Virus record (IMG/VR): IMGVR_UViG_2548876955_000006
Span: 1 to 9,179 of that record
Reading direction: 5' to 3' (one strand)
Length of the DNA: 9,179 bases
Source of the DNA: a virus
Lineage: Duplodnaviria; Heunggongvirae; Uroviricota; Caudoviricetes
Part shown: in pieces, positions 1 through 9,179 of the stretch
How positions within the stretch are numbered: position 1 is the first letter of the stretch
Layout: every line of letters begins with the position of its first letter
Notes under the pieces: model-generated
What the model saw: only the letters and a program-made list of their open reading frames with translations
Databases searched by the model: none
What the model was told of the DNA's origin: nothing
Translations under genes and position numbers: made by a program

Positions 1-33
1 AAAGTTAACCATCTGTGCGGCGATGTTTTTCAT
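1..33 (-). CDS. P: Replication protein P, 5' end only (runs off the window edge)
   Basis: Reverse complement of 1-33 reads ATG AAA AAC ATC GCC GCA CAG ATG GTT AAC TTT = MKNIAAQMVNF, the lambda P N-terminus as I recall it. Its ATG (31-33) overlaps the O stop (30-32) in an ATGA arrangement, as in lambda. Confidence 0.85.
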   Translation of the reverse strand, partial: MKNIAAQMVNF

Positions 34-929
34 AAATCCACCCCGTAAATCCAGTCAGTGTTTGTCAGGTCGAGTTTTGGTTTGCTGGCTGTCACGCCTG
101 CCTGTTGCTTGTTACGGTTGATTTCGAGCTGGGTCCACTTGTCGCGGAGTTTGGCCGGGCTCAGCACGTTACCGGACCAGAAGTTGTCCTGGCATGCCCA
201 GCGGAACAGTACGCACATGTCGCGATGGTTACGTCCGTCACGTTCACGCATCAGGCGGATATCGTTAGCCCACCCTGCAAAATTCGGTTTTCTGGCTGAT
301 GGCGCGATGGTCTTCACCATGTCAAACATCCACTCTGCGGCGGTCAGGTCTTCTGCTGTTCCCCACTTGCTGCCGCTCTGAATTGCAGCATCCGGTTTAA
401 CCACAGAAAGATCGTTTTCTGGCTGGTCAGAGGATTCGCCAGAATTCTCGGACGAATAATCTTTTCTTTTTTCTTTTGTAATAGTGTCTTTTGTGTCCCC
501 CTGTTTTGAGGGATAGCAATCCCCCAATTTGAGGGATGTTTTATCCCTCGTTTTAGGGGATTTTCCCTCGTTTTGAGGGATACACCATTCTGAGATGTTT
601 TTATTTGGTCCAAACATGCCGCCTTGCTGCTTGATAATATTCATTCTGACGAGTTCTAACTTGGCTTCATTGCACCGTTTGACGGGTAACTTTGTAATCT
701 CGCTAAGTTGAGAATCGGTGATTCTGTCCATTGGTTTATTCCACCCATAGGTTTTACGCAGAATGGCAAGCAGCACTTTAAACTGTCGCTTGGTCAGATC
801 TGCGCCTGAATAAGCCTCAAGCAGCATATTTGATAGTCTGGCGTAACCATCATCGAGATCTGCCACATTACGCTCCTGTCCGGCAAAGTTACCTCTGCCG
901 AAGTTGAGTATTTTTGCTGTATTTGTCAT
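30..929 (-). CDS. O: Replication initiator protein O (lambda O-like)
   Basis: 299-aa ORF MTNTAKILNFGRGNFAGQERNVADLDDGYARLSNMLLEAY...DWIYGVDL, matching lambda O from memory. AGGAG Shine-Dalgarno upstream of the ATG at 927-929. Contains the ori iterons internally. Confidence 0.95.
   Translation of the reverse strand: MTNTAKILNFGRGNFAGQERNVADLDDGYARLSNMLLEAYSGADLTKRQFKVLLAILRKTYGWNKPMDRITDSQLSEITKLPVKRCNEAKLELVRMNIIKQQGGMFGPNKNISEWCIPQNEGKSPKTRDKTSLKLGDCYPSKQGDTKDTITKEKRKDYSSENSGESSDQPENDLSVVKPDAAIQSGSKWGTAEDLTAAEWMFDMVKTIAPSARKPNFAGWANDIRLMRERDGRNHRDMCVLFRWACQDNFWSGNVLSPAKLRDKWTQLEINRNKQQAGVTASKPKLDLTNTDWIYGVDL
498..583. repeat. Origin of replication: four iterons (O-binding sites) inside the O gene, with adjacent AT-rich stretch (approx 440-480)
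   Basis: Four ~18-19 bp repeats of the form (A)TCCCTC-N-TTGAGGGA(T): ccctgttttgagggat, atcccccaatttgagggat, atccctcgttttaggggat, ttccctcgttttgagggat. Lambda ori has this architecture. Confidence 0.85.
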
Positions 930-932
930 AAT
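904..932 (+). promoter_or_regulatory. Po promoter for oop RNA
   Basis: -35 TTGAGT (904-909), 17-bp spacer, -10 CATAAT (927-932), placing the start about 7 nt downstream at the oop 5' end. Confidence 0.5.
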
Positions 933-939
933 GACTCCT

Positions 940-1016
940 GTTGATAGATCCAGTAATGACCTCAGAACTCCATCTGGATTTGTTCAGAACGCTCGGTTGC
1001 CGCCGGGCGTTTTTTA
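940..1016 (+). ncRNA. oop: oop antisense RNA (antisense to the cII 3' end), with intrinsic terminator
   Basis: Sequence gttgatagatccagtaatgacctcagaactccatctggatttgttcagaacgctcggttgccgccgggcgtttttt matches lambda oop RNA as recalled. It is 77 nt, ends in a GC-rich hairpin plus T6, and overlaps the 3' end of cII on the opposite strand. Confidence 0.8.
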
Positions 1017-1255
1017 TTGGTGAGAATCGCAGCAACTTGTCGCGCCAATCGAGCCATGTCGTCGTCAACGACCCCCCATTCAAGAACAGCAAGCAGCATT
1101 GAGAACTTTGGAATCCAGTCTCTCTTCCACCTGCTGATCTGCGACTTATCAACTCCCACAGCTTCCGCTGTCTTCTCAGTTCCAAGCATTGCGATTTTGT
1201 TAAGCAACGCACTCTCGATTCGTAGAGCCTCGTTGCGTTTGTTTGCACGAACCAT
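962..1255 (-). CDS. cII: Transcriptional activator CII
   Basis: The internal Met of ORF 962..1315 gives the 97-aa MVRANKRNEALRIESALLNKIAMLGTEKTAEAVGVDKSQISRWKRDWIPKFSMLLAVLEWGVVDDDMARLARQVAAILTNKKRPAATERSEQIQMEF, identical to lambda CII as recalled. AAGGAA Shine-Dalgarno upstream of the ATG at 1253-1255. Confidence 0.95.
   Translation of the reverse strand: MVRANKRNEALRIESALLNKIAMLGTEKTAEAVGVDKSQISRWKRDWIPKFSMLLAVLEWGVVDDDMARLARQVAAILTNKKRPAATERSEQIQMEF
1233..1246 (+). promoter_or_regulatory. CII-binding site TTGC-N6-TTGC of the pRE promoter (would drive plus-strand transcription toward cI)
   Basis: ttgcgtttgtttgc lies just inside the 5' end of cII on the opposite strand, the lambda pRE arrangement. 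Confidence 0.6.
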
Positions 1256-1334
1256 ATGTAAGTATTTCCTTAGATAACAATTGATTGAATGTATGCAAAT
1301 AAATGCATACACCATAGGTGTGGTTTAATTTGAT

Positions 1335-1367
1335 GCCCTTTTTCAGGGCTGGGATGTGTAAGAGCGG
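1335..1367 (-). promoter_or_regulatory. nutR (boxA + boxB) N-utilisation site
   Basis: Minus strand reads CGCTCTTACACA (boxA, 1356-1367) followed by GCCCTGAAAAAGGGC (boxB stem-loop, 1335-1349), between cro and cII. Confidence 0.8.
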
Positions 1368-1374
1368 GAATGTC

Positions 1375-1590
1375 TTAAGCGGCTTTGTGTTCCGGCGGGA
1401 ACACGTCATCAAGACTGACTTCTGCGCCTAACTTGTTTAGGCACTCAACAAGAGCACGGCATGTTTTAAGGTCTGGGAAGCGACGACCAGATTCCCAATG
1501 TCCGATAGCTCCCTGTGTGCATCCAACTGCCTTAGCAAGTGTTGTTTGAGAGATATTCAGTGACTCTCGATATTTTCGTAGGTTGCTCAT
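1375..1590 (-). CDS. cro: Cro-like repressor (HTH, XRE-type; not lambda Cro)
   Basis: 71-aa MSNLRKYRESLNISQTTLAKAVGCTQGAIGHWESGRRFPDLKTCRALVECLNKLGAEVSLDDVFPPEHKAA, from the internal ATG of ORF 1375..1761 with a GGAGG Shine-Dalgarno. Helix-turn-helix signature. Divergent from cI and followed by nutR-cII. Confidence 0.85.
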   Translation of the reverse strand: MSNLRKYRESLNISQTTLAKAVGCTQGAIGHWESGRRFPDLKTCRALVECLNKLGAEVSLDDVFPPEHKAA

Positions 1591-1701
1591 ATGCCCTCCA
1601 TAGTAACCATGAAACAATAATACGATATGTACTTTTAGAATGCAAACAAAAAATACATCTTGTGCATGGATGGTTTTAGTACAGAGCGTAATAATAAGGG
1701 T
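1591..1701. promoter_or_regulatory. OR operator region with divergent PR (minus) and PRM (plus) promoters
   Basis: 111-bp cro-cI intergenic region. PR candidate on the minus strand: -35 TTTGCA (complement of 1641-1646), 18-bp spacer, -10 TATTAT (complement of 1617-1622). Operator-like sites sharing the core RTACA-N-CGTA: 1620-1634 (tacgatatgtact) and 1678-1692 (agtacagagcgtaat), with a weaker middle site near 1650-1664. Confidence 0.5.
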
Positions 1702-2361
1702 ATGAAAATGAAATGGTATGAACTGGCTAGATCCAGAATGAAAGAGCTCGGCATAACTCAAGAGAAGTTAGCTGAAGAGCTTGGTATGACGCAGGGTGGA
1801 ATTGGTCACTGGTTGCGCGGATCTCGTCATCCATCTCTTGACGAGATTGGTGTGGTGTTTAAATACCTTGGTATTGATAACGTCTCATTCAACCACGACG
1901 GTACATTTTCACCTGTTGGCGAATACTCATCTGCCCCCGTTAAAAAACAATATGAGTACCCTGTTTTTTCTCATGTTCAGGCCGGGATGTTCTCGCCTGA
2001 GCTTAGAACCTTTACCAAAGGTGATGCGGAGAGATGGGTCAGCACAACCAAAAAAGCCAGTGATTGTGCGTTCTGGCTTGAAGTTGAAGGTAATTCCATG
2101 ACCGCGCCAACAGGATCCAAGCCAAGCTTTCCTGACGGGATGTTAATTCTCGTTGACCCTGAGCAGGCTGTTGAGCCAGGTGATTTCTGCATAGCCAGAC
2201 TTGGTGGTGACGAGTTTACCTTCAAGAAACTGATCAGGGATAGCGGTCAGGTGTTCCTACAGCCACTAAACCCGCAATATCCAATGATTCCATGCAATGA
2301 TAGCTGTTCCGTAGTAGGGAAAGTTATCGCCAGCCAGTGGCCTGAAGAGACATTTAGTTAA
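1702..2361 (+). CDS. cI: CI-type phage repressor (N-terminal HTH plus LexA/S24-like autocleavage domain)
   Basis: 219 aa from ATG 1702 ([37 protein letters not shown]...), with AAGGG Shine-Dalgarno. The C-terminal domain carries an Ala-Gly cleavage site (VQAGMF), the catalytic Ser (GNSM) and Lys (FKKL), and matches the lambda cI C-terminal domain as recalled. The N-terminal domain is non-lambda. Confidence 0.9.
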
Positions 2362-2392
2362 CAGCCTCACCACTCTAAAGCACACAACAATA

Positions 2393-2421
2393 ACCCGACC
2401 TTAGTGTCGGGTTTTCTTTTT
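2393..2421 (+). terminator. Intrinsic terminator downstream of cI
   Basis: Hairpin acccgac-cttagt-gtcgggt followed by TTTTCTTTTT. Confidence 0.6.
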
Positions 2422-2440
2422 CCAAAATATAAACCCACTA

Positions 2441-2521
2441 AATACAAAGCGTTATAAAAAACTAATTATATTTAGAACATTTTGTATTGACTCAATAAAG
2501 TACAAATCGTACTATTTAGCC
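2441..2521 (+). promoter_or_regulatory. OL operators and PL promoter
   Basis: -35 TTGACT (2487-2492), 17-bp spacer, -10 TACTAT (2510-2515), start near 2522 (ATCAGCAGG, as for the lambda PL transcript). Operator-like sites of the same family as OR: 2442-2455 atacaaagcgttat, 2474-2488 (complement aatacaaaatgttct), 2499-2513 agtacaaatcgtact. Confidence 0.55.
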
Positions 2522-2554
2522 ATCAGCAGGACGCACTAACCACCATGAAGGTGA

Positions 2555-2585
2555 TGCTCTTAAAAATTAAGCCCTGAAGAAGGGC
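2555..2585 (+). promoter_or_regulatory. nutL (boxA + boxB)
   Basis: TGCTCTTAAAAATTAA followed by GCCCTGAAGAAGGGC (boxB hairpin, 2571-2585) in the PL leader, matching lambda nutL apart from one boxA position. Confidence 0.85.
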
Positions 2586-2742
2586 AGCATTCAAAGCAGA
2601 AGGCTTTGGGGTGTGTGATACGAAACGAAGCATTGGCCGGAAGTGCGAATCCGGATTAGCTGCAAATGAGCCAATCGGGGGTGTTTTCGTTCAGGACTAC
2701 GACTCACACACACCACCAAAGCTAACTGACAAGAGAATCCAG

Positions 2743-4565
<1,823 letters not shown>

Positions 4566-4635
4566 TGGAGCACCTGTGTTGTTCTGAGGTGAGCATATCA
4601 CCTCTGTTCAGGTGGCCAAATTCAGTGTGCCACTA

Positions 4636-4893
<258 letters not shown>

Positions 4894-4926
4894 TTAAAAG
4901 ACAGGCATACTAATAAACACTGCACT

Positions 4927-4954
4927 GTGTATTCATTCCAACGAGTGAATACAC
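4927..4954. promoter_or_regulatory. Perfect 9-bp inverted repeat GTGTATTCA-N10-TGAATACAC (possible regulator binding site or RNA hairpin)
   Basis: Read directly from the sequence. No adjacent T-tract on either strand, so it is unlikely to be an intrinsic terminator. Confidence 0.35.
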
Positions 4955-5016
4955 GGAGCAATGTCGCTCGTAACTAAACAGGAGCCGACTTGTTCTGATT
5001 ATTGGAAATCTTCTTT

Positions 5017-5040
5017 GCCCTCCAGTGTGAGGGCTTTTTT
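5017..5040 (+). terminator. Intrinsic terminator on the plus strand upstream of cIII (tL-like)
   Basis: GCCCTC-cagtgt-GAGGGC hairpin followed by TTTTTT. The T-tract is only on the plus strand. Confidence 0.6.
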
Positions 5041-5106
5041 ATATGCATACCAATAACGCTTCACGAGAGGCGTTTTCGTTATGCAATCAAATATAAGGAG
5101 TTACCC

Positions 5107-5241
5107 ATGATGCACTTTCAGCTCGCGGGTAGCGGCGTCATGTCCGCTTTCTACCCGCTCGAATCTGAATTATCACGCCGAGTTAAACAATTAATCAGAG
5201 CAGCAAAGAAACAACTGGAGGCGTTATGCGCAATGAAATAA
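5107..5241 (+). CDS. cIII: CIII-like protein (putative FtsH inhibitor)
   Basis: 44-aa MMHFQLAGSGVMSAFYPLESELSRRVKQLIRAAKKQLEALCAMK with AAGGAG Shine-Dalgarno. Resembles the lambda CIII pattern (M.Y.IAG...ESLLERI.RKL) and occupies the cIII position before kil. The ORF-track start at 5002 is an upstream over-extension. Confidence 0.6.
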   Translation: MMHFQLAGSGVMSAFYPLESELSRRVKQLIRAAKKQLEALCAMK

Positions 5242-5378
5242 CCATCAATCACCAGATGCTTCGTGCAGCACAAAACAAAGCAGTAATAGCCAGATTTATT
5301 GGTGATTCCAAAATGTGGCTTGAAGCAAATAAAGCGATGAAATCAGCTATCAACCTTCCGTGGTATCGCAGGAAATGA
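5226..5378 (+). CDS. kil: Kil-like protein (host cell-division inhibitor)
   Basis: 50-aa MRNEITINHQMLRAAQNKAVIARFIGDSKMWLEANKAMKSAINLPWYRRK, absent from the ORF track because it is short. Its start overlaps the cIII 3' end, as kil does in lambda. The IARFIGD-KM segment resembles lambda Kil from memory. Confidence 0.5.
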   Translation: MRNEITINHQMLRAAQNKAVIARFIGDSKMWLEANKAMKSAINLPWYRRK

Positions 5379-5453
5379 GTTTTACAGATAACTGGTCAGA
5401 CGAAGAATTCATTCGTCAGATGAAAGAATTAATCGGTAACGAAGGAGATATTC

Positions 5454-5624
5454 ATGTCACTTGCAACCACCGTGAAGGAGAGCAAGTTACAGAGACGCAT
5501 GTACACGCAGCAGGCGTTAATGTATCGCCAGAAGGGAGATCGTGAAGGTGTTCGCGTCTTTTTAAATGCGGCAAAGACCGAAGTATTAAATCAGCGTTAT
5601 TTCCTTGGTCCATGTCCATTCTGA
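5454..5624 (+). CDS. Hypothetical small protein (56 aa) at the position lambda gam occupies
   Basis: MSLATTVKESKLQRRMYTQQALMYRQKGDREGVRVFLNAAKTEVLNQRYFLGPCPF. Strong Shine-Dalgarno AAGGAG 6 nt before the ATG. Its stop precedes the SSAP gene by 8 nt. No family recognised. Confidence 0.45.
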   Translation: MSLATTVKESKLQRRMYTQQALMYRQKGDREGVRVFLNAAKTEVLNQRYFLGPCPF

Positions 5625-5632
5625 GGTGAATT

Positions 5633-6340
5633 ATGGATTTGAATAAATTCGATGAGCCATTCAGCCCTGAAGATATCGAATGGCGAATACAGCAAAGCGG
5701 TAAAACACGCGATGGCAAGGTGTGGGCTATGGTGCTGGCTTATGTCACGAACAGGGCAATCATGAAACGCCTGGACGATGTTTGCGGCAAAGCAGGATGG
5801 CGCAATGAATACCGCGATATTCCCAACAACGGAGGCGTTGAATGCGGCATATCAATCAGGATTGATTCCGAATGGGTAACCAAATGGGATGCTGCTGAAA
5901 ACACGCAGGTAGAAGCCGTCAAAGGTGGTCGTTCCGGCGCAATGAAGCGCGCTGCCGTTCAGTGGGGAATCGGTCGGTATCTGTATAACCTTGAGGAAGG
6001 TTTCGCACAAACATCTCTCGATAAAAAGCAGGGGTGGCACAGGGCAAAACTGAAGGATGGAACAGGATTTTACTGGCTCCCTCCATCGCTGCCGGGATGG
6101 GCAATCCCAGCATCAGATAACAAACCATCACCAGAAAATACCAACCAGAAATCTCCATCGGTTGACTGCGAACAAATCCTGAAAGACTTCAGCGATTATG
6201 CATCAACAGAAACTGACAAGAAAAAACTCATCGAGCGTTATCAGCGTGACTGGCAATTAATGGCTGGCAACGAGGAGGCACAGGCTAAATGCGTTCAGGT
6301 AATGAACATCAGAGTTAACGAACTAAAACAGGCGGCATAA
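5633..6340 (+). CDS. Rad52-like single-strand annealing protein (Sak-type recombinase)
   Basis: 235 aa with GAGGTG Shine-Dalgarno. Motifs typical of the phage Rad52/Sak family (...RDGKVWAMVLAYV...GGVECGISIRI...GAMKRAAVQWGIGRYLY). Occupies the position of lambda bet. Confidence 0.7.
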   Translation: MDLNKFDEPFSPEDIEWRIQQSGKTRDGKVWAMVLAYVTNRAIMKRLDDVCGKAGWRNEYRDIPNNGGVECGISIRIDSEWVTKWDAAENTQVEAVKGGRSGAMKRAAVQWGIGRYLYNLEEGFAQTSLDKKQGWHRAKLKDGTGFYWLPPSLPGWAIPASDNKPSPENTNQKSPSVDCEQILKDFSDYASTETDKKKLIERYQRDWQLMAGNEEAQAKCVQVMNIRVNELKQAA

Positions 6341-6808
6341 ATGTCTCACTTGGACGGAATTATTAAAAGATTCGAGTCCAGCTACAAAGTTAATGAAACA
6401 ACAGGTTGCTGGGAGTCTACCTATTCAAAAAACAAAGGAGGATACACAAAATTTGTAGCCTTTGGCGTAACAATGCTTTCTCATCGGGTTGCTTTTGAGC
6501 TTTATCACTCCCCCATTCCATCTGGGAAGATGGTTTGCCACAAATGCGATAACCCATGCTGCGTTAATCCTGAACATCTCTTTTTAGGTAGCGCGCAAGA
6601 AAACATGGACGACAAGATAGCAAAAGGAAGGCATCGTGGAGCCAAGAAAGGTCATGCTCATCATGGTGCAAAATTAACAGAGTGGCAGGTTATAGAAATT
6701 AGGAAAAGACTCTCTGAAAAAGAGAGTCAGTACAAGATAGCAAAAGACATGGGTGTATCTCAATCAATTATAAGCAACATAAAAACTGGCAAGAGGTGGA
6801 GCAAATGA
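6341..6808 (+). CDS. HNH endonuclease (HNH_3-like) with C-terminal HTH
   Basis: 155 aa with the HNH signature ...[45 protein letters not shown]... The ATG directly follows the SSAP stop, and its own stop overlaps the ssb ATG. Confidence 0.85.
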
Positions 6809-7311
6809 GTTCTCGCGGGATAAATAAGGTGATTATCCTTGGTCGGGTAGGACAAGACCCGGAAGTTCGATACTCACCATCAGGAACAGCGTTCGCTAAC
6901 CTGACAATAGCCACGTCAGAACAATGGCGAGATAAAAATACTGGCGAGCAAAAGGAATTGACTGAATGGCATCGTGTTGCTGTATCCGGGAAACTGGCTG
7001 AGGTCGTGGGGCAGTATGTGAAAAAAGGTGATCAGATTTATTTCGAGGGAATGCTGAGAACCAGAAAGTGGAAAGACCAGTCAGGGCAAGACCGTTACAC
7101 AACCGAGGTTCATGTCGGAATTAATGGCGTGATGCAAATGCTTGGCGGCATTGGCGACAGCAAACAACAAGCAGCCAGCAGGCAATCACAGAAGCCACAG
7201 CAGCAATCATCACCAGCACAACACAACGAACCTCCGATGGATTTTGACGACGATATACCCTTTGCACCAGTAACTCTCCCCTTCCCTCGTCACGCTATTC
7301 ACGCAATTTAA
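6805..7311 (+). CDS. ssb: Single-stranded DNA-binding protein
   Basis: 168 aa [44 protein letters not shown]...[15 protein letters not shown]...[18 protein letters not shown]..., with the acidic C-terminal tail [11 protein letters not shown]. Closely resembles E. coli SSB as recalled. Confidence 0.9.
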
Positions 7312-7324
7312 TCAGGAGAAAATC

Positions 7325-7618
7325 ATGCCAGCGCCTCTGTATGGTGCGGATGACCCGCGCCGCTGTTCCGGCAATTCCGTATCGGAGGTGCTGGATAAAT
7401 TCAGAAAAAACTACGATCGGATAATGTCGCTACCGCAGGAAACGAAAGAGGAAAAGGAATTTCGCCATTGTATATGGCTTGCAGAGAAAGAAGAACGCGA
7501 GCGAATTTACCAGACATCAATCCGACCATTCCGCAAAGCCACATATACCCACTTCCCTGAAATTGACCCGCGCCTGCGTAATTATCGATCACGCTATGGC
7601 GCTATCAGTAATGACTGA
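7325..7618 (+). CDS. Hypothetical protein (97 aa)
   Basis: ORF with Shine-Dalgarno CAGGAGAAA 6 nt upstream of the ATG. No recognised domain. Part of the co-directional early-left operon. Confidence 0.5.
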
Positions 7619-7628
7619 GGAATTTACC

Positions 7629-7793
7629 ATGAGAGGACTTGCATACAATCCCGGCATTCTTCCGGCAGAAATGATTATTCGCCAACGCGTAAAGCCAATG
7701 CCATCGAGAGAGGAATTGCTTAAGAGAAATTCTTCTCCGTCAGTGAATCAAAACAAATATCTGAATGCGATGTGGCGGAGTGGGAAGAAATGA
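7629..7793 (+). CDS. Hypothetical small protein (54 aa)
   Basis: [60 protein letters not shown] Shine-Dalgarno 7 nt upstream. An alternative ATG at 7611 has no Shine-Dalgarno. Its stop overlaps the next ATG (ATGA). Confidence 0.45.
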
Positions 7794-8227
7794 AACGAAT
7801 GACACTAATTGAGATGGATGGATTTCTGAAAGGTAAATGCATCCCATGTGATTTAAAGGTTAACGAAACAAATGCTGAATATCTGGTACGCAAATTTGCT
7901 GAAGCGGAGGCCAAGTGCGCGGCGCTGGCGGCGGAGAATGCGGAGCTGAAGTCTGTGCACCCTCAACCATTCGGAGCAGAGATGATGAAGGCTCTTGATG
8001 AGTATGAGAAGCATCAGGATGAAGTGCCAGAGACTGGAATGCTCAATGCATTTTTCATCTTGCGCGACAGCATCCGTGTTGAAACCCCAGCCACCGACTC
8101 TTTCCTGTCTGAAGTGCGGGCGCAGGGGGTTGAGATGATGCGCGAACACCCATCAATCAAACTTTGCTCTTTGACGCACATATGTGATGAGTTAGCCGCC
8201 CAGCTTCGCAAAGGAGGCAACCAGTGA
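7790..8227 (+). CDS. Hypothetical protein (145 aa), possibly Ead/Ea22-like
   Basis: [54 protein letters not shown]... with a coiled-coil-like Ala/Glu-rich segment. The Ea22-like assignment is a weak recollection, not a verified match. Confidence 0.5.
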
Positions 8228-8307
8228 CTGGACATGCAGCAATCCTCGACATGTGCTGTGGCAGTCGCATGTTCTGGTTAGATAAGAATGACGAACGGGC
8301 GAGATAA
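8224..8307 (+). pseudogene. Possible truncated gene remnant (27 codons) with a SAM-methyltransferase motif-I-like sequence
   Basis: GTG-initiated [27 protein letters not shown] then stop. ILDMCCGS resembles motif I (hhDhxxGxG-like) of methyltransferases. Downstream frames are closed by multiple stops. Confidence 0.3.
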
Positions 8308-8357
8308 GCGATCGGTTAAGTGCTATAGTAATGCGCTTTTGTATTTATGGAGTGAAT

Positions 8358-9056
8358 ATGAAAAATATCCTACTGGCATCATTGTTAGTGGCATCGCCGG
8401 GTGCATTTGCAGCCAGCTTTGACTGCCAAAAGGCTTCGACAGCAATCGAACATAAAATCTGCGATAACGAACGTCTGTCAAAATTAGACGAACAGCTTAG
8501 CTCTGCCTATTCTAGTGCCCTCAAAGGAAACCCAGAGAACGCAGACACCCTAAAAATGGTTCAACGTCAGTGGGTAAATATGCGTGGAAAACTCACTGAT
8601 AATAAGGCTCTGGAGCTGGCTTATCTTATCCAAATTAATGGCCTCAAAGGTTTGGGGAGTTCAGTCAGCGTAACAGCGGCCAATGACATACCCACGTCGG
8701 CGCAGAAACATTCTGAAGAGCAGGAAGAAACAAGTAAGGCAGAAGCTAAGTCGGTCAAGAACGGCAATGAGCTAACCTTAGAGTCATTCCGAGCTAAATA
8801 TGTAGAAGTAGATGGTGAGTATTACAGCACGACATCCATTCCTAGAGGCAGTTCGTTCTTGTTCACTTGCGCCAGTCGTATTGCTGATGACCAAGTGAAT
8901 ATTTGGAAGAAACAGGCAGCCAAAGAGGGCAAAATCGACTTATTCTTTGAGGTTGAGAATCACTTACACACGGCTATGTTGAACGCCAATTTTCAGAAGT
9001 TGAATTCAGACCCTGCCAAAAGAGGTATTTGTAATCTGATTAACGCAGTGCCGTAA
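8358..9056 (+). CDS. Secreted DUF1311 / LprI-like (lysozyme-inhibitor family N-terminal domain) protein
   Basis: 232 aa from ATG 8358 with GGAG Shine-Dalgarno. Signal peptide MKNILLASLLVASPGAFA|AS. DUF1311-type pattern FDCQKASTAIEHKICDNERLSKLDEQLSSAYSSALKG...LKMVQRQWVNMR. C-terminal half of unknown function. Followed by a strong terminator. Confidence 0.7.
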   Translation: MKNILLASLLVASPGAFAASFDCQKASTAIEHKICDNERLSKLDEQLSSAYSSALKGNPENADTLKMVQRQWVNMRGKLTDNKALELAYLIQINGLKGLGSSVSVTAANDIPTSAQKHSEEQEETSKAEAKSVKNGNELTLESFRAKYVEVDGEYYSTTSIPRGSSFLFTCASRIADDQVNIWKKQAAKEGKIDLFFEVENHLHTAMLNANFQKLNSDPAKRGICNLINAVP

Positions 9057-9065
9057 GTAAATTTA

Positions 9066-9096
9066 GGGCCACAGTTGTGGCCTTAAATATTTTTTC
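9066..9096 (+). terminator. Intrinsic terminator after the DUF1311 gene
   Basis: GGGCCAC-agtt-GTGGCC hairpin followed by TTAAATATTTTTT. Confidence 0.7.
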
Positions 9097-9179
9097 AGCC
9101 TTTTCTTATTTGTAATAAGCAGTACTTGGTAGTGCTTATAAAACAGAATAAAAAACATATGACTTTGGCGATTACCCAG

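Follow-up and report, generated by a model that had tools for sequence, protein, structure and literature searches.

The LprI family takes its name from a protein of Mycobacterium tuberculosis in which a DUF1311 domain is joined to an MliC domain, and it is to the MliC part that the inhibition of lysozyme has been credited (PMC7933661). ScwA of Salmonella, a DUF1311-only protein of the periplasm, is soluble and stabilised by disulfides; it raises the levels of MltD and its overproduction lyses the cell (PMC7933661). Enterohaemorrhagic Escherichia coli has a DUF1311 protein, Etsi4, that relieves the toxicity which Etse4 exerts in the periplasm (PMC12981562), and in Pantoea the genes with an LprI domain are found either beside type VI secretion system (T6SS) effectors that have lysozyme-like or pesticin domains, or as orphans (PMC9796082; bioRxiv 10.64898/2026.08.01.741415). 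Among phage proteins, T4 Spackle, made early and located in the periplasm, inhibits the gp5 lysozyme carried by the tail of a superinfecting phage (PMC7677548). Here, we examine an accessory cassette of ~0.86 kb, and the 232-aa DUF1311 protein that it encodes, in a 9,179-nucleotide (nt) stretch of E. coli prophage DNA (positions 1 to 9,179 of the IMG/VR record IMGVR_UViG_2548876955_000006; hereafter, the window). Sequence comparison argues that this cassette moved from the backbone of an SSU5-type phage-plasmid into that of a lambdoid phage, and we suggest, tentatively, that its product binds and neutralises peptidoglycan hydrolases that reach the periplasm from outside.

The cassette extends from position 8289 to ~9146 of the window, limits that are given by its alignments with an SSU5-type locus (L006) and with SSU5-like plasmids; it and all the features described below within or immediately beside it lie on the plus (+) strand. 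It comprises, in order, the last ~30 nt of the gene that preceded it in the donor, a promoter-like motif, a ribosome-binding site, the gene itself, a terminator, and ~55 nt of donor intergenic DNA. At its left edge is a remnant of 27 codons (8224-8307) with the motif ILDMCCGS, which an earlier note on this DNA had taken for a piece of a methyltransferase gene. This it proves to be: the remnant is the 5' end of a class I S-adenosylmethionine (SAM)-dependent methyltransferase gene truncated by the cassette, and 24 of its first 26 residues are identical to the N-terminus of the 157-aa protein WP_000145671.1. The remnant ends at codon 27 of 157, and between 8279 and 8331 there are stops in all three frames, as the note had also stated. 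The full-length source gene that it sought exists intact in other prophages (L005:2520-2993, 157 aa, with matches to Methyltransf_11/25), and related prophages have the intact methyltransferase at this very site in place of the cassette. At the DNA level, window positions 8205-8312 are 94.5% identical to SAM-dependent methyltransferase genes of O157, O111, and other prophages, and the remnant also matches phage DNA-methyltransferase PHROGs (phrog_11564, E 1.4e-11). The same stub in NZ_CP145718 (strain S1-CAM-01-C) was annotated by the Prokaryotic Genome Annotation Pipeline (PGAP) as a pseudogene "missing C-terminus". An internal stop makes even the full-length counterpart a pseudogene in the O157:H7 strain ECP19-2498 (L003:3520-3993); across the prophages, the small methyltransferase is decaying by more than one route.

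The recombination joint was placed by a three-way comparison of the window, L005, and L006. It coincides with a 14-nt microhomology, TGACGAnCnGGCGA (8289-8302), which is common to the methyltransferase gene, the window, and the 3' end of an SSU5-type gene of the phiTE_072 family. To the left of the joint the window follows the methyltransferase gene; to its right it follows SSU5, and by local alignment positions 8289-9093 can be matched end to end with positions 5932-6727 of L006. In the SSU5-type element, the counterpart of 8289-8319 is formed by the final codons and stop of the phiTE_072-family gene that precedes the cassette gene. As part of an adjacent donor gene was thus carried along, the comparison argues that the cassette passed from an SSU5-type backbone into a lambdoid one and not in the opposite sense. 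In the lambdoid lineage, it replaced all but the first 27 codons of the methyltransferase gene through recombination within the 14-nt microhomology. The replacement scar that had been suspected here can therefore be mapped to a precise joint, with an SSU5-like phage-plasmid as the donor type.

The right flank of the cassette leads to the same source. Positions 9073-9146 match unannotated intergenic DNA of SSU5-like plasmids with ~80-84% identity, at ~113 places in plasmids of ~100-115 kb, and one plasmid, p09EL50, matches this flank though it is without the gene. A second, imperfect hairpin (arms 9115-9124 and 9130-9139) is present in the flank and is conserved in p09EL50.

The left side of the locus records a more complicated history. 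The upstream neighbour in the window is an ea22-like hypothetical gene (7790-8227; PGAP WP_000827660.1; matches to phrog_614 and phrog_492) whose stop codon TGA (8225-8227) overlaps the GTG of the remnant. In megablast comparisons, other lambdoid prophages that bear the cassette match the window only from ~8087 on, where they have ead/Ea22-like genes; the sharing begins inside the C-terminal part of the ea22-like gene and there is, therefore, a mosaic joint within it. In different lambdoid prophages the stub and the cassette are found together behind different genes: ead/Ea22-like genes, a DUF2737 gene, or the gene of this window. Such varied upstream partners, behind one and the same stub, suggest a single acquisition that was subsequently reshuffled among the lambdoid phages.

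The gene itself occupies positions 8358-9056, with its stop at 9054-9056, and PGAP calls the same coding sequence (WP_000789829.1). It is contained within a longer open reading frame (8331-9056), and we take ATG 8358 as the real start, since a Shine-Dalgarno sequence GGAG (8349-8352) lies 5 nt 5' of it, as read from the sequence and the PGAP start. The alternative ATG at 8331, 27 nt upstream and in frame (241 aa), was rejected: it has no ribosome-binding site, it spoils the n-region of the signal peptide, and it is absent in the SSU5-type copy. The 241-aa version is common in automated metagenome gene calls (cluster P0001, 318 members), where it is probably a mis-called start. Upstream of the Shine-Dalgarno sequence there is an extended -10-like motif, TGcTATAGT (8321-8329), which can be read as a candidate promoter of the cassette's own with a predicted start near 8336; in the alignment it is identical in the SSU5-type copy and in the window. 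A promoter based on this motif alone is plausible but unproven, because a two-hexamer scan did not report TGcTATAGT. Downstream, a terminator scan found the terminator that the earlier note had named: an intrinsic-terminator-like structure (9061-9095) with a stem of 12 pairs (9061-9088; core GGCCAC-AGTT-GTGGCC) followed by ATTTTTT, the hairpin being conserved in alignments with the SSU5-type elements. The gene is not, however, terminal in the sense of that note: a hypothetical gene, xis, and int follow it on the same strand before the junction with mdtA. Nor does the base composition, a comparison that the note had proposed, mark it as foreign; its GC content is 44.5% (45.9% at third codon positions, GC3), that of the window is 46.2%, and the neighbouring genes range over 41-50%.

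The protein is predicted to be exported and soluble. Its first 18 residues (8358-8411), MKNILLASLLVASPGAFA, followed by A, have the layout of a Sec signal peptide cleaved by signal peptidase I, as judged by the hydrophobicity profile and the -3/-1 rule: a lysine at position 2, a hydrophobic core from I4 to S13 (9-residue Kyte-Doolittle means of up to 2.97), a break at P14-G15, and then A16-F-A18, with predicted cleavage before A19, between AFA and AS. The junction AxA-ASFDC is kept in homologues from T4-like phages down to 26% identity, and one of these homologues is annotated "contains predicted signal peptide", so that the signal peptide proposed from the first reading of this sequence is well upheld. 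The 232-aa protein has no lipobox, its first cysteine being five residues into the mature protein, and its profile contains no later hydrophobic or transmembrane segment.

The mature protein is divided into three parts. The N-terminal part (residues 19-100; 8412-8657) is the DUF1311/LprI-like helical domain: PF07007 matches residues 23-78 with a score of 25.3 bits, the gathering threshold being 22 (E 2.1e-5), covering positions 1-70 of the 106 in the model, and 8 of 12 family members are matched by it. Conserved cysteines have been noted for the PF07007 proteins (PMC7933661). Here the domain has only two, C23 and C35, which do not vary across the family of the present protein, and a further pair, C171 and C225, belongs to the C-terminal domain. 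A structure prediction from 13 close homologues only was unusable, with a mean predicted local distance difference test (pLDDT) score of 47; a usable one was obtained with a 17-sequence alignment that included the distant phage homologues (mean pLDDT 75.6). In it the N-terminal domain is composed of four helices (residues ~29-100, pLDDT 78-90) and superposes on a solved DUF1311 structure, so that by the model this is a DUF1311 fold, as the early assignment to that family had implied. It is followed by a disordered linker of 36 residues (101-136; 8658-8765) with low pLDDT (26-43), variable in sequence and marked by indels in the alignments.

The C-terminal domain (residues 137-232 and the stop; 8766-9056) is predicted with a pLDDT of 85-94 over residues ~141-230, where a short helix leads into a beta-hairpin and this into three helices; the conserved residues of the domain are G153, C171, D178, A187, F196, N209, and C225. 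It had previously been considered unassignable, and so it appears: Pfam, NCBIfam, PADLOC, and the PDB sequences gave no match to this half. For the whole protein, NCBIfam and PADLOC gave no meaningful matches, and searches of the PDB sequences with the protein or the family profile gave only chance matches, to ORC6 and RIB43A. Foldseek against the PDB found nothing below E = 1, and a structure search of BFVD returned only the family's own T4-like members; the C-terminal domain has no specific match in the PDB or BFVD outside its own family. In PHROGs, the whole protein belongs to phrog_4675, of unknown function. An exhaustive HMMER search of 1.84 billion representative proteins with the C-terminal 108 residues gave just 12 hits, of which ~10 are true; P0059 and P0060 were rejected as low-complexity repeat-protein artefacts when their sequences were read. 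In two of the true hits, P0062 and P0066, the domain is preceded by a lipoprotein signal and by N-terminal sequence that is unrelated, with no DUF1311. Since its true relatives are so few and include these lipoprotein-anchored forms on islands with integrases and AlpA-type regulators, the C-terminal domain appears from these searches to be a rare autonomous module of mobile elements, with no known relatives beyond phages and mobile islands. Both of the islands (P0066, L014:8001-8999; P0062, L015:709-1671) have a small TM2-domain gene immediately 3' of the gene in question, which may form with it a conserved two-gene unit. DUF1311, for its part, is also joined to other C-terminal domains, such as PdaC/DUF3298 in P0073 and a different C-terminal part in RB49-type phages.

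Divergence between the window gene and its SSU5-type copy is far from uniform along the protein. The ratio of nonsynonymous to synonymous substitution (dN/dS) is 0.155 overall, with 0.14 in the N-terminal domain, 0.06 in the C-terminal domain, and 0.65 in the linker. Both folded domains are thus under purifying selection, the C-terminal one being the most constrained, and both are functional.

The gene is present in 125 of 5426 complete E. coli genomes, as 108 chromosomal copies of at least 95% identity and 17 plasmid copies of 82-84%, and in 124 of the 125 its reading frame is intact and near full length. The protein of Escherichia phage ev099 is 98.7% identical and that of Salmonella phage SSU5 81.9%; beyond the lambdoid prophages, the nearest relatives (~80% identity) are located amid phage genes on contigs of ~107-110 kb from Salmonella, Citrobacter, Enterobacter, and Klebsiella. 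When phage genomes were searched in translation, 154 records were found, most of them T4-like phages. Full-length homologues with 26-30% identity occur in Aeromonas phages 31, 44RR2.8t, 25, CC2, and others, Klebsiella phages match only to about residue 179, and in the RB49-type phages the match is confined to the N-terminal part. In Aeromonas phage 31 (L010:2501-3166) and in a Klebsiella phage (L012:2501-3256) the homologue is found among the early genes, between primase gene 61 and dCTPase gene 56. This is a plastic region which in T4 itself contains sp (61.3). Our literature searches, which paired LprI with prophage or phage, found no publication on the gene; it had already been catalogued (WP_000789829.1, phrog_4675) and automatically named, and what is new here is the cassette with its motifs and terminator, its joint, the relatives in T4-like phages, and the purifying selection on both folded domains.

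The prophage is a lambdoid/P22-like element, and the cassette sits in the accessory part of its leftward early operon, between the recombination genes and xis-int. This prophage is also scrambled. In the window from ~2500 to 5230 (L001 3809-6526), PGAP annotates truncated pseudogenes for a nuclease, YdfO, the N-terminus of a DnaB-like helicase, and a hypothetical protein, and the arm that extends from kil to int abuts a truncated DnaB-like gene that is read from the other strand. Upstream of kil the annotation shows no N, cI, or pL region, and the native promoter of the early operon that carries the cassette has probably been lost from this strain. Between the gene of the Rad52-family recombinase and ssb there is an HNH endonuclease gene (6341-6808; HNH_3 and a helix-turn-helix region), with the lowest GC content of the region (40.8%). 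The HNH gene is missing from this place in L004, a related prophage where ssb comes directly after the recombinase gene, and so it looks like a free-standing homing-endonuclease insertion.

What might such a cassette do for its carriers? The reading that we prefer, though we hold it tentatively and would not yet call it probable, is that its product is a periplasmic binder that neutralises an incoming peptidoglycan hydrolase, be it a phage tail lysozyme or a T6SS muramidase. Once exported, the protein would be free in the periplasm, with disulfides made by DsbA, and would act there by binding another protein; its layout would be that of LprI, with MliC swapped for a different small domain. The target would be a hydrolase that arrives from outside. 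It could be the lysozyme on the tail of a superinfecting phage, which is what T4 Spackle inhibits, or a T6SS effector that resembles lysozyme, of the type that DUF1311 immunity proteins counter; protection would fall to the lysogen or, for a virulent phage, to the cell that it has infected. In the lysogen, transcription would begin at the gene's own promoter and end at the cassette's terminator; early transcripts that are antiterminated in lytic growth would continue into xis-int. The C-terminal domain might carry the specificity for the target, since it is the most constrained part of the protein and also occurs without DUF1311, and DUF1311 might add a second binding or assembly function. By analogy with these systems, the earlier suggestion of a role in envelope defence or superinfection exclusion is a reasonable hypothesis.

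Several of our observations weigh against this reading. In the window, in the neighbourhood of the source genome, and in the SSU5-type and T4-like loci that we examined, there is neither a hydrolase nor an effector gene linked to the cassette. The match to PF07007 is both marginal and partial, the N-terminal domain is without a second cysteine pair, and the fold of the protein is known only from a prediction on a 17-sequence alignment. The scan for two-hexamer consensus promoters reported none at the cassette, and TGcTATAGT has no -35 hexamer. In the Klebsiella T4-like phage, the homologue coexists with a gene annotated as spackle, which lies across gene 61 from it. Finally, ScwA, the one DUF1311-only protein in which protection from lysozyme has been assayed, gave no lysozyme phenotype and affects instead the levels of MltD, a lytic transglycosylase of the host itself (PMC7933661). 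A broader formulation, which we regard as rather doubtful, is that the C-terminal domain represents a new kind of periplasmic inhibitor module, and that phrog_4675 and its T4-like relatives constitute an unrecognised protection factor (for exclusion or against the T6SS) in which DUF1311 is a reusable carrier or oligomerisation module. Such a factor, if real, would be common to virulent T4-like phages, SSU5-type phage-plasmids, lambdoid prophages, and integrative islands.

Superinfection can also be countered without the inhibition of any enzyme. Llp and Cor mask FhuA from superinfecting phages, and the C-terminal domain could bind a host receptor, a porin, or the inner-membrane machinery of DNA entry and mask it in like manner. 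A predicted periplasmic protein that is carried by temperate phages, phage-plasmids, and virulent phages would suit such a block, as would the pronounced constraint on the C-terminal domain (dN/dS 0.06), and the forms of this domain that have a lipoprotein anchor and no DUF1311 are what one would expect of an envelope-attached blocker. The present form, however, is soluble, with neither lipobox nor transmembrane segment, hosts as different as Aeromonas and E. coli share no one receptor, and the searches that we made revealed no resemblance to a known exclusion protein; we consider an entry block unlikely. The protein might, alternatively, act upon the cell's own enzymes, modulating the host's lytic transglycosylases or endopeptidases in a way that aids the timing of lysis or the remodelling of the envelope. 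Predicted periplasmic export and perhaps the conserved cysteines are shared with ScwA (PMC7933661), but in that protein DUF1311 is C-terminal in a different architecture of 275 aa, nothing outside the domain is similar, and ScwA's own mechanism is unknown. A gene that perturbs the wall would, moreover, be an odd constitutive cargo for a prophage, and an effect of this kind seems to us distinctly improbable.

The name of the family invites a further explanation, namely that the protein inhibits c-type lysozyme of animals and so helps the lysogen to survive in its host. Many of the carriers do come from animals and poultry, and both PGAP and Pfam apply the name. Yet the name stems from M. tuberculosis LprI, where inhibition is credited to the MliC domain (PMC7933661), and in the 232-aa protein MliC (PF09864) has no match at E <= 1. 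Because MliC is absent, the protein is not a lipoprotein, and the DUF1311-only ScwA has no lysozyme phenotype (PMC7933661), the membership in a lysozyme-inhibitor family to which the earlier note had appealed is a matter of name only; the RefSeq designation "lysozyme inhibitor" is no evidence of that activity. Virulent T4-like phages of Aeromonas and Klebsiella, furthermore, have homologues and no reason to resist animal lysozyme, which makes this explanation very unlikely indeed. The scrambled state of the prophage and its many pseudogenes might be thought to indicate a hitch-hiking reading frame with no current function, an idea to which we give almost no credence: both domains are under purifying selection while the linker drifts, the frame is intact and near full length in all but one of the 125 E. 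coli copies, and homologues in different phage families keep the architecture even at 26% identity.

We thus retain the neutralisation of an incoming hydrolase as our preferred, if tentative, reading. The spread of the family across T4-like, SSU5-type, and lambdoid phages, together with the rarity of the C-terminal domain, makes the protein a reasonable candidate for an exclusion or immunity factor. Were it to protect the envelope, the known factors of the Spackle or immunity kind would gain one that passes between phages of very different types, with a bearing on host range in phage therapy and on bacterial competition in the gut; its carriage extends to ~2% of complete E. coli genomes and to SSU5-type plasmids of Salmonella, Citrobacter, Enterobacter, and Klebsiella. 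Independently of function, the mapped microhomology joint provides a clean example of an accessory cassette that passed from a phage-plasmid to a lambdoid prophage, and for DUF1311-only proteins the automatic label "lysozyme inhibitor LprI family protein" claims more than is known.

How does this protein compare with the systems with which we began? It shares with the proteins of PF07007, represented by PDB 3gi7 (Pseudomonas putida PP0307), an above-threshold score, what may be the conserved N-terminal cysteine pair, and predicted export; it differs from them in that it matches only positions 1-70 of the 106 in the model, lacks the second cysteine pair, and continues into a linker and an unrelated domain of 96 aa. 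With M. tuberculosis LprI (Rv1541c) it has in common the order of its parts, an export signal, DUF1311, and a second small domain. LprI, however, is a lipoprotein whose second domain is MliC, whereas here there is no lipobox, no MliC, and a second domain of unknown family. ScwA (SL1344_0490) is likewise a soluble periplasmic DUF1311 protein, with disulfides and a history of horizontal acquisition (PMC7933661), but it is chromosomal, carries its DUF1311 at the C-terminal end of 275 aa, acts on MltD levels, and is unrelated outside the domain. The DUF1311 immunity proteins of the T6SS resemble the present protein in having a signal peptide; they act in the periplasm against toxins that target the cell wall and are often orphans on mobile DNA (PMC12981562, PMC9796082, bioRxiv 10.64898/2026.08.01.741415). 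Unlike Etsi4 and Psi15, with which the comparison is by description, the protein studied here is phage-borne, has an additional C-terminal domain, and has no effector nearby.

The two remaining comparisons are with phage systems. T4 Spackle (Sp, 61.3) is phage-encoded, soluble, periplasmic, and early, and the T4-like homologues of our protein occupy the same plastic region between genes 61 and 56; no similarity of sequence or fold to Spackle was found, and the notion that the family replaces Spackle was dropped when one Klebsiella T4-like phage proved to have both. The morons of lambdoid phages, a concept due to Hendrix and colleagues, are accessory genes with a promoter and a terminator of their own. 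The cassette departs from the typical moron in that its base composition is not deviant, its promoter is a motif alone, and it replaced a resident gene where a moron would be a clean insertion. In its layout, as far as this can be read from the DNA, it is nevertheless a self-contained accessory unit of the moron kind, with one gene flanked by a promoter-like motif and a terminator; it is located between conserved phage genes and moves between unrelated types of phage.

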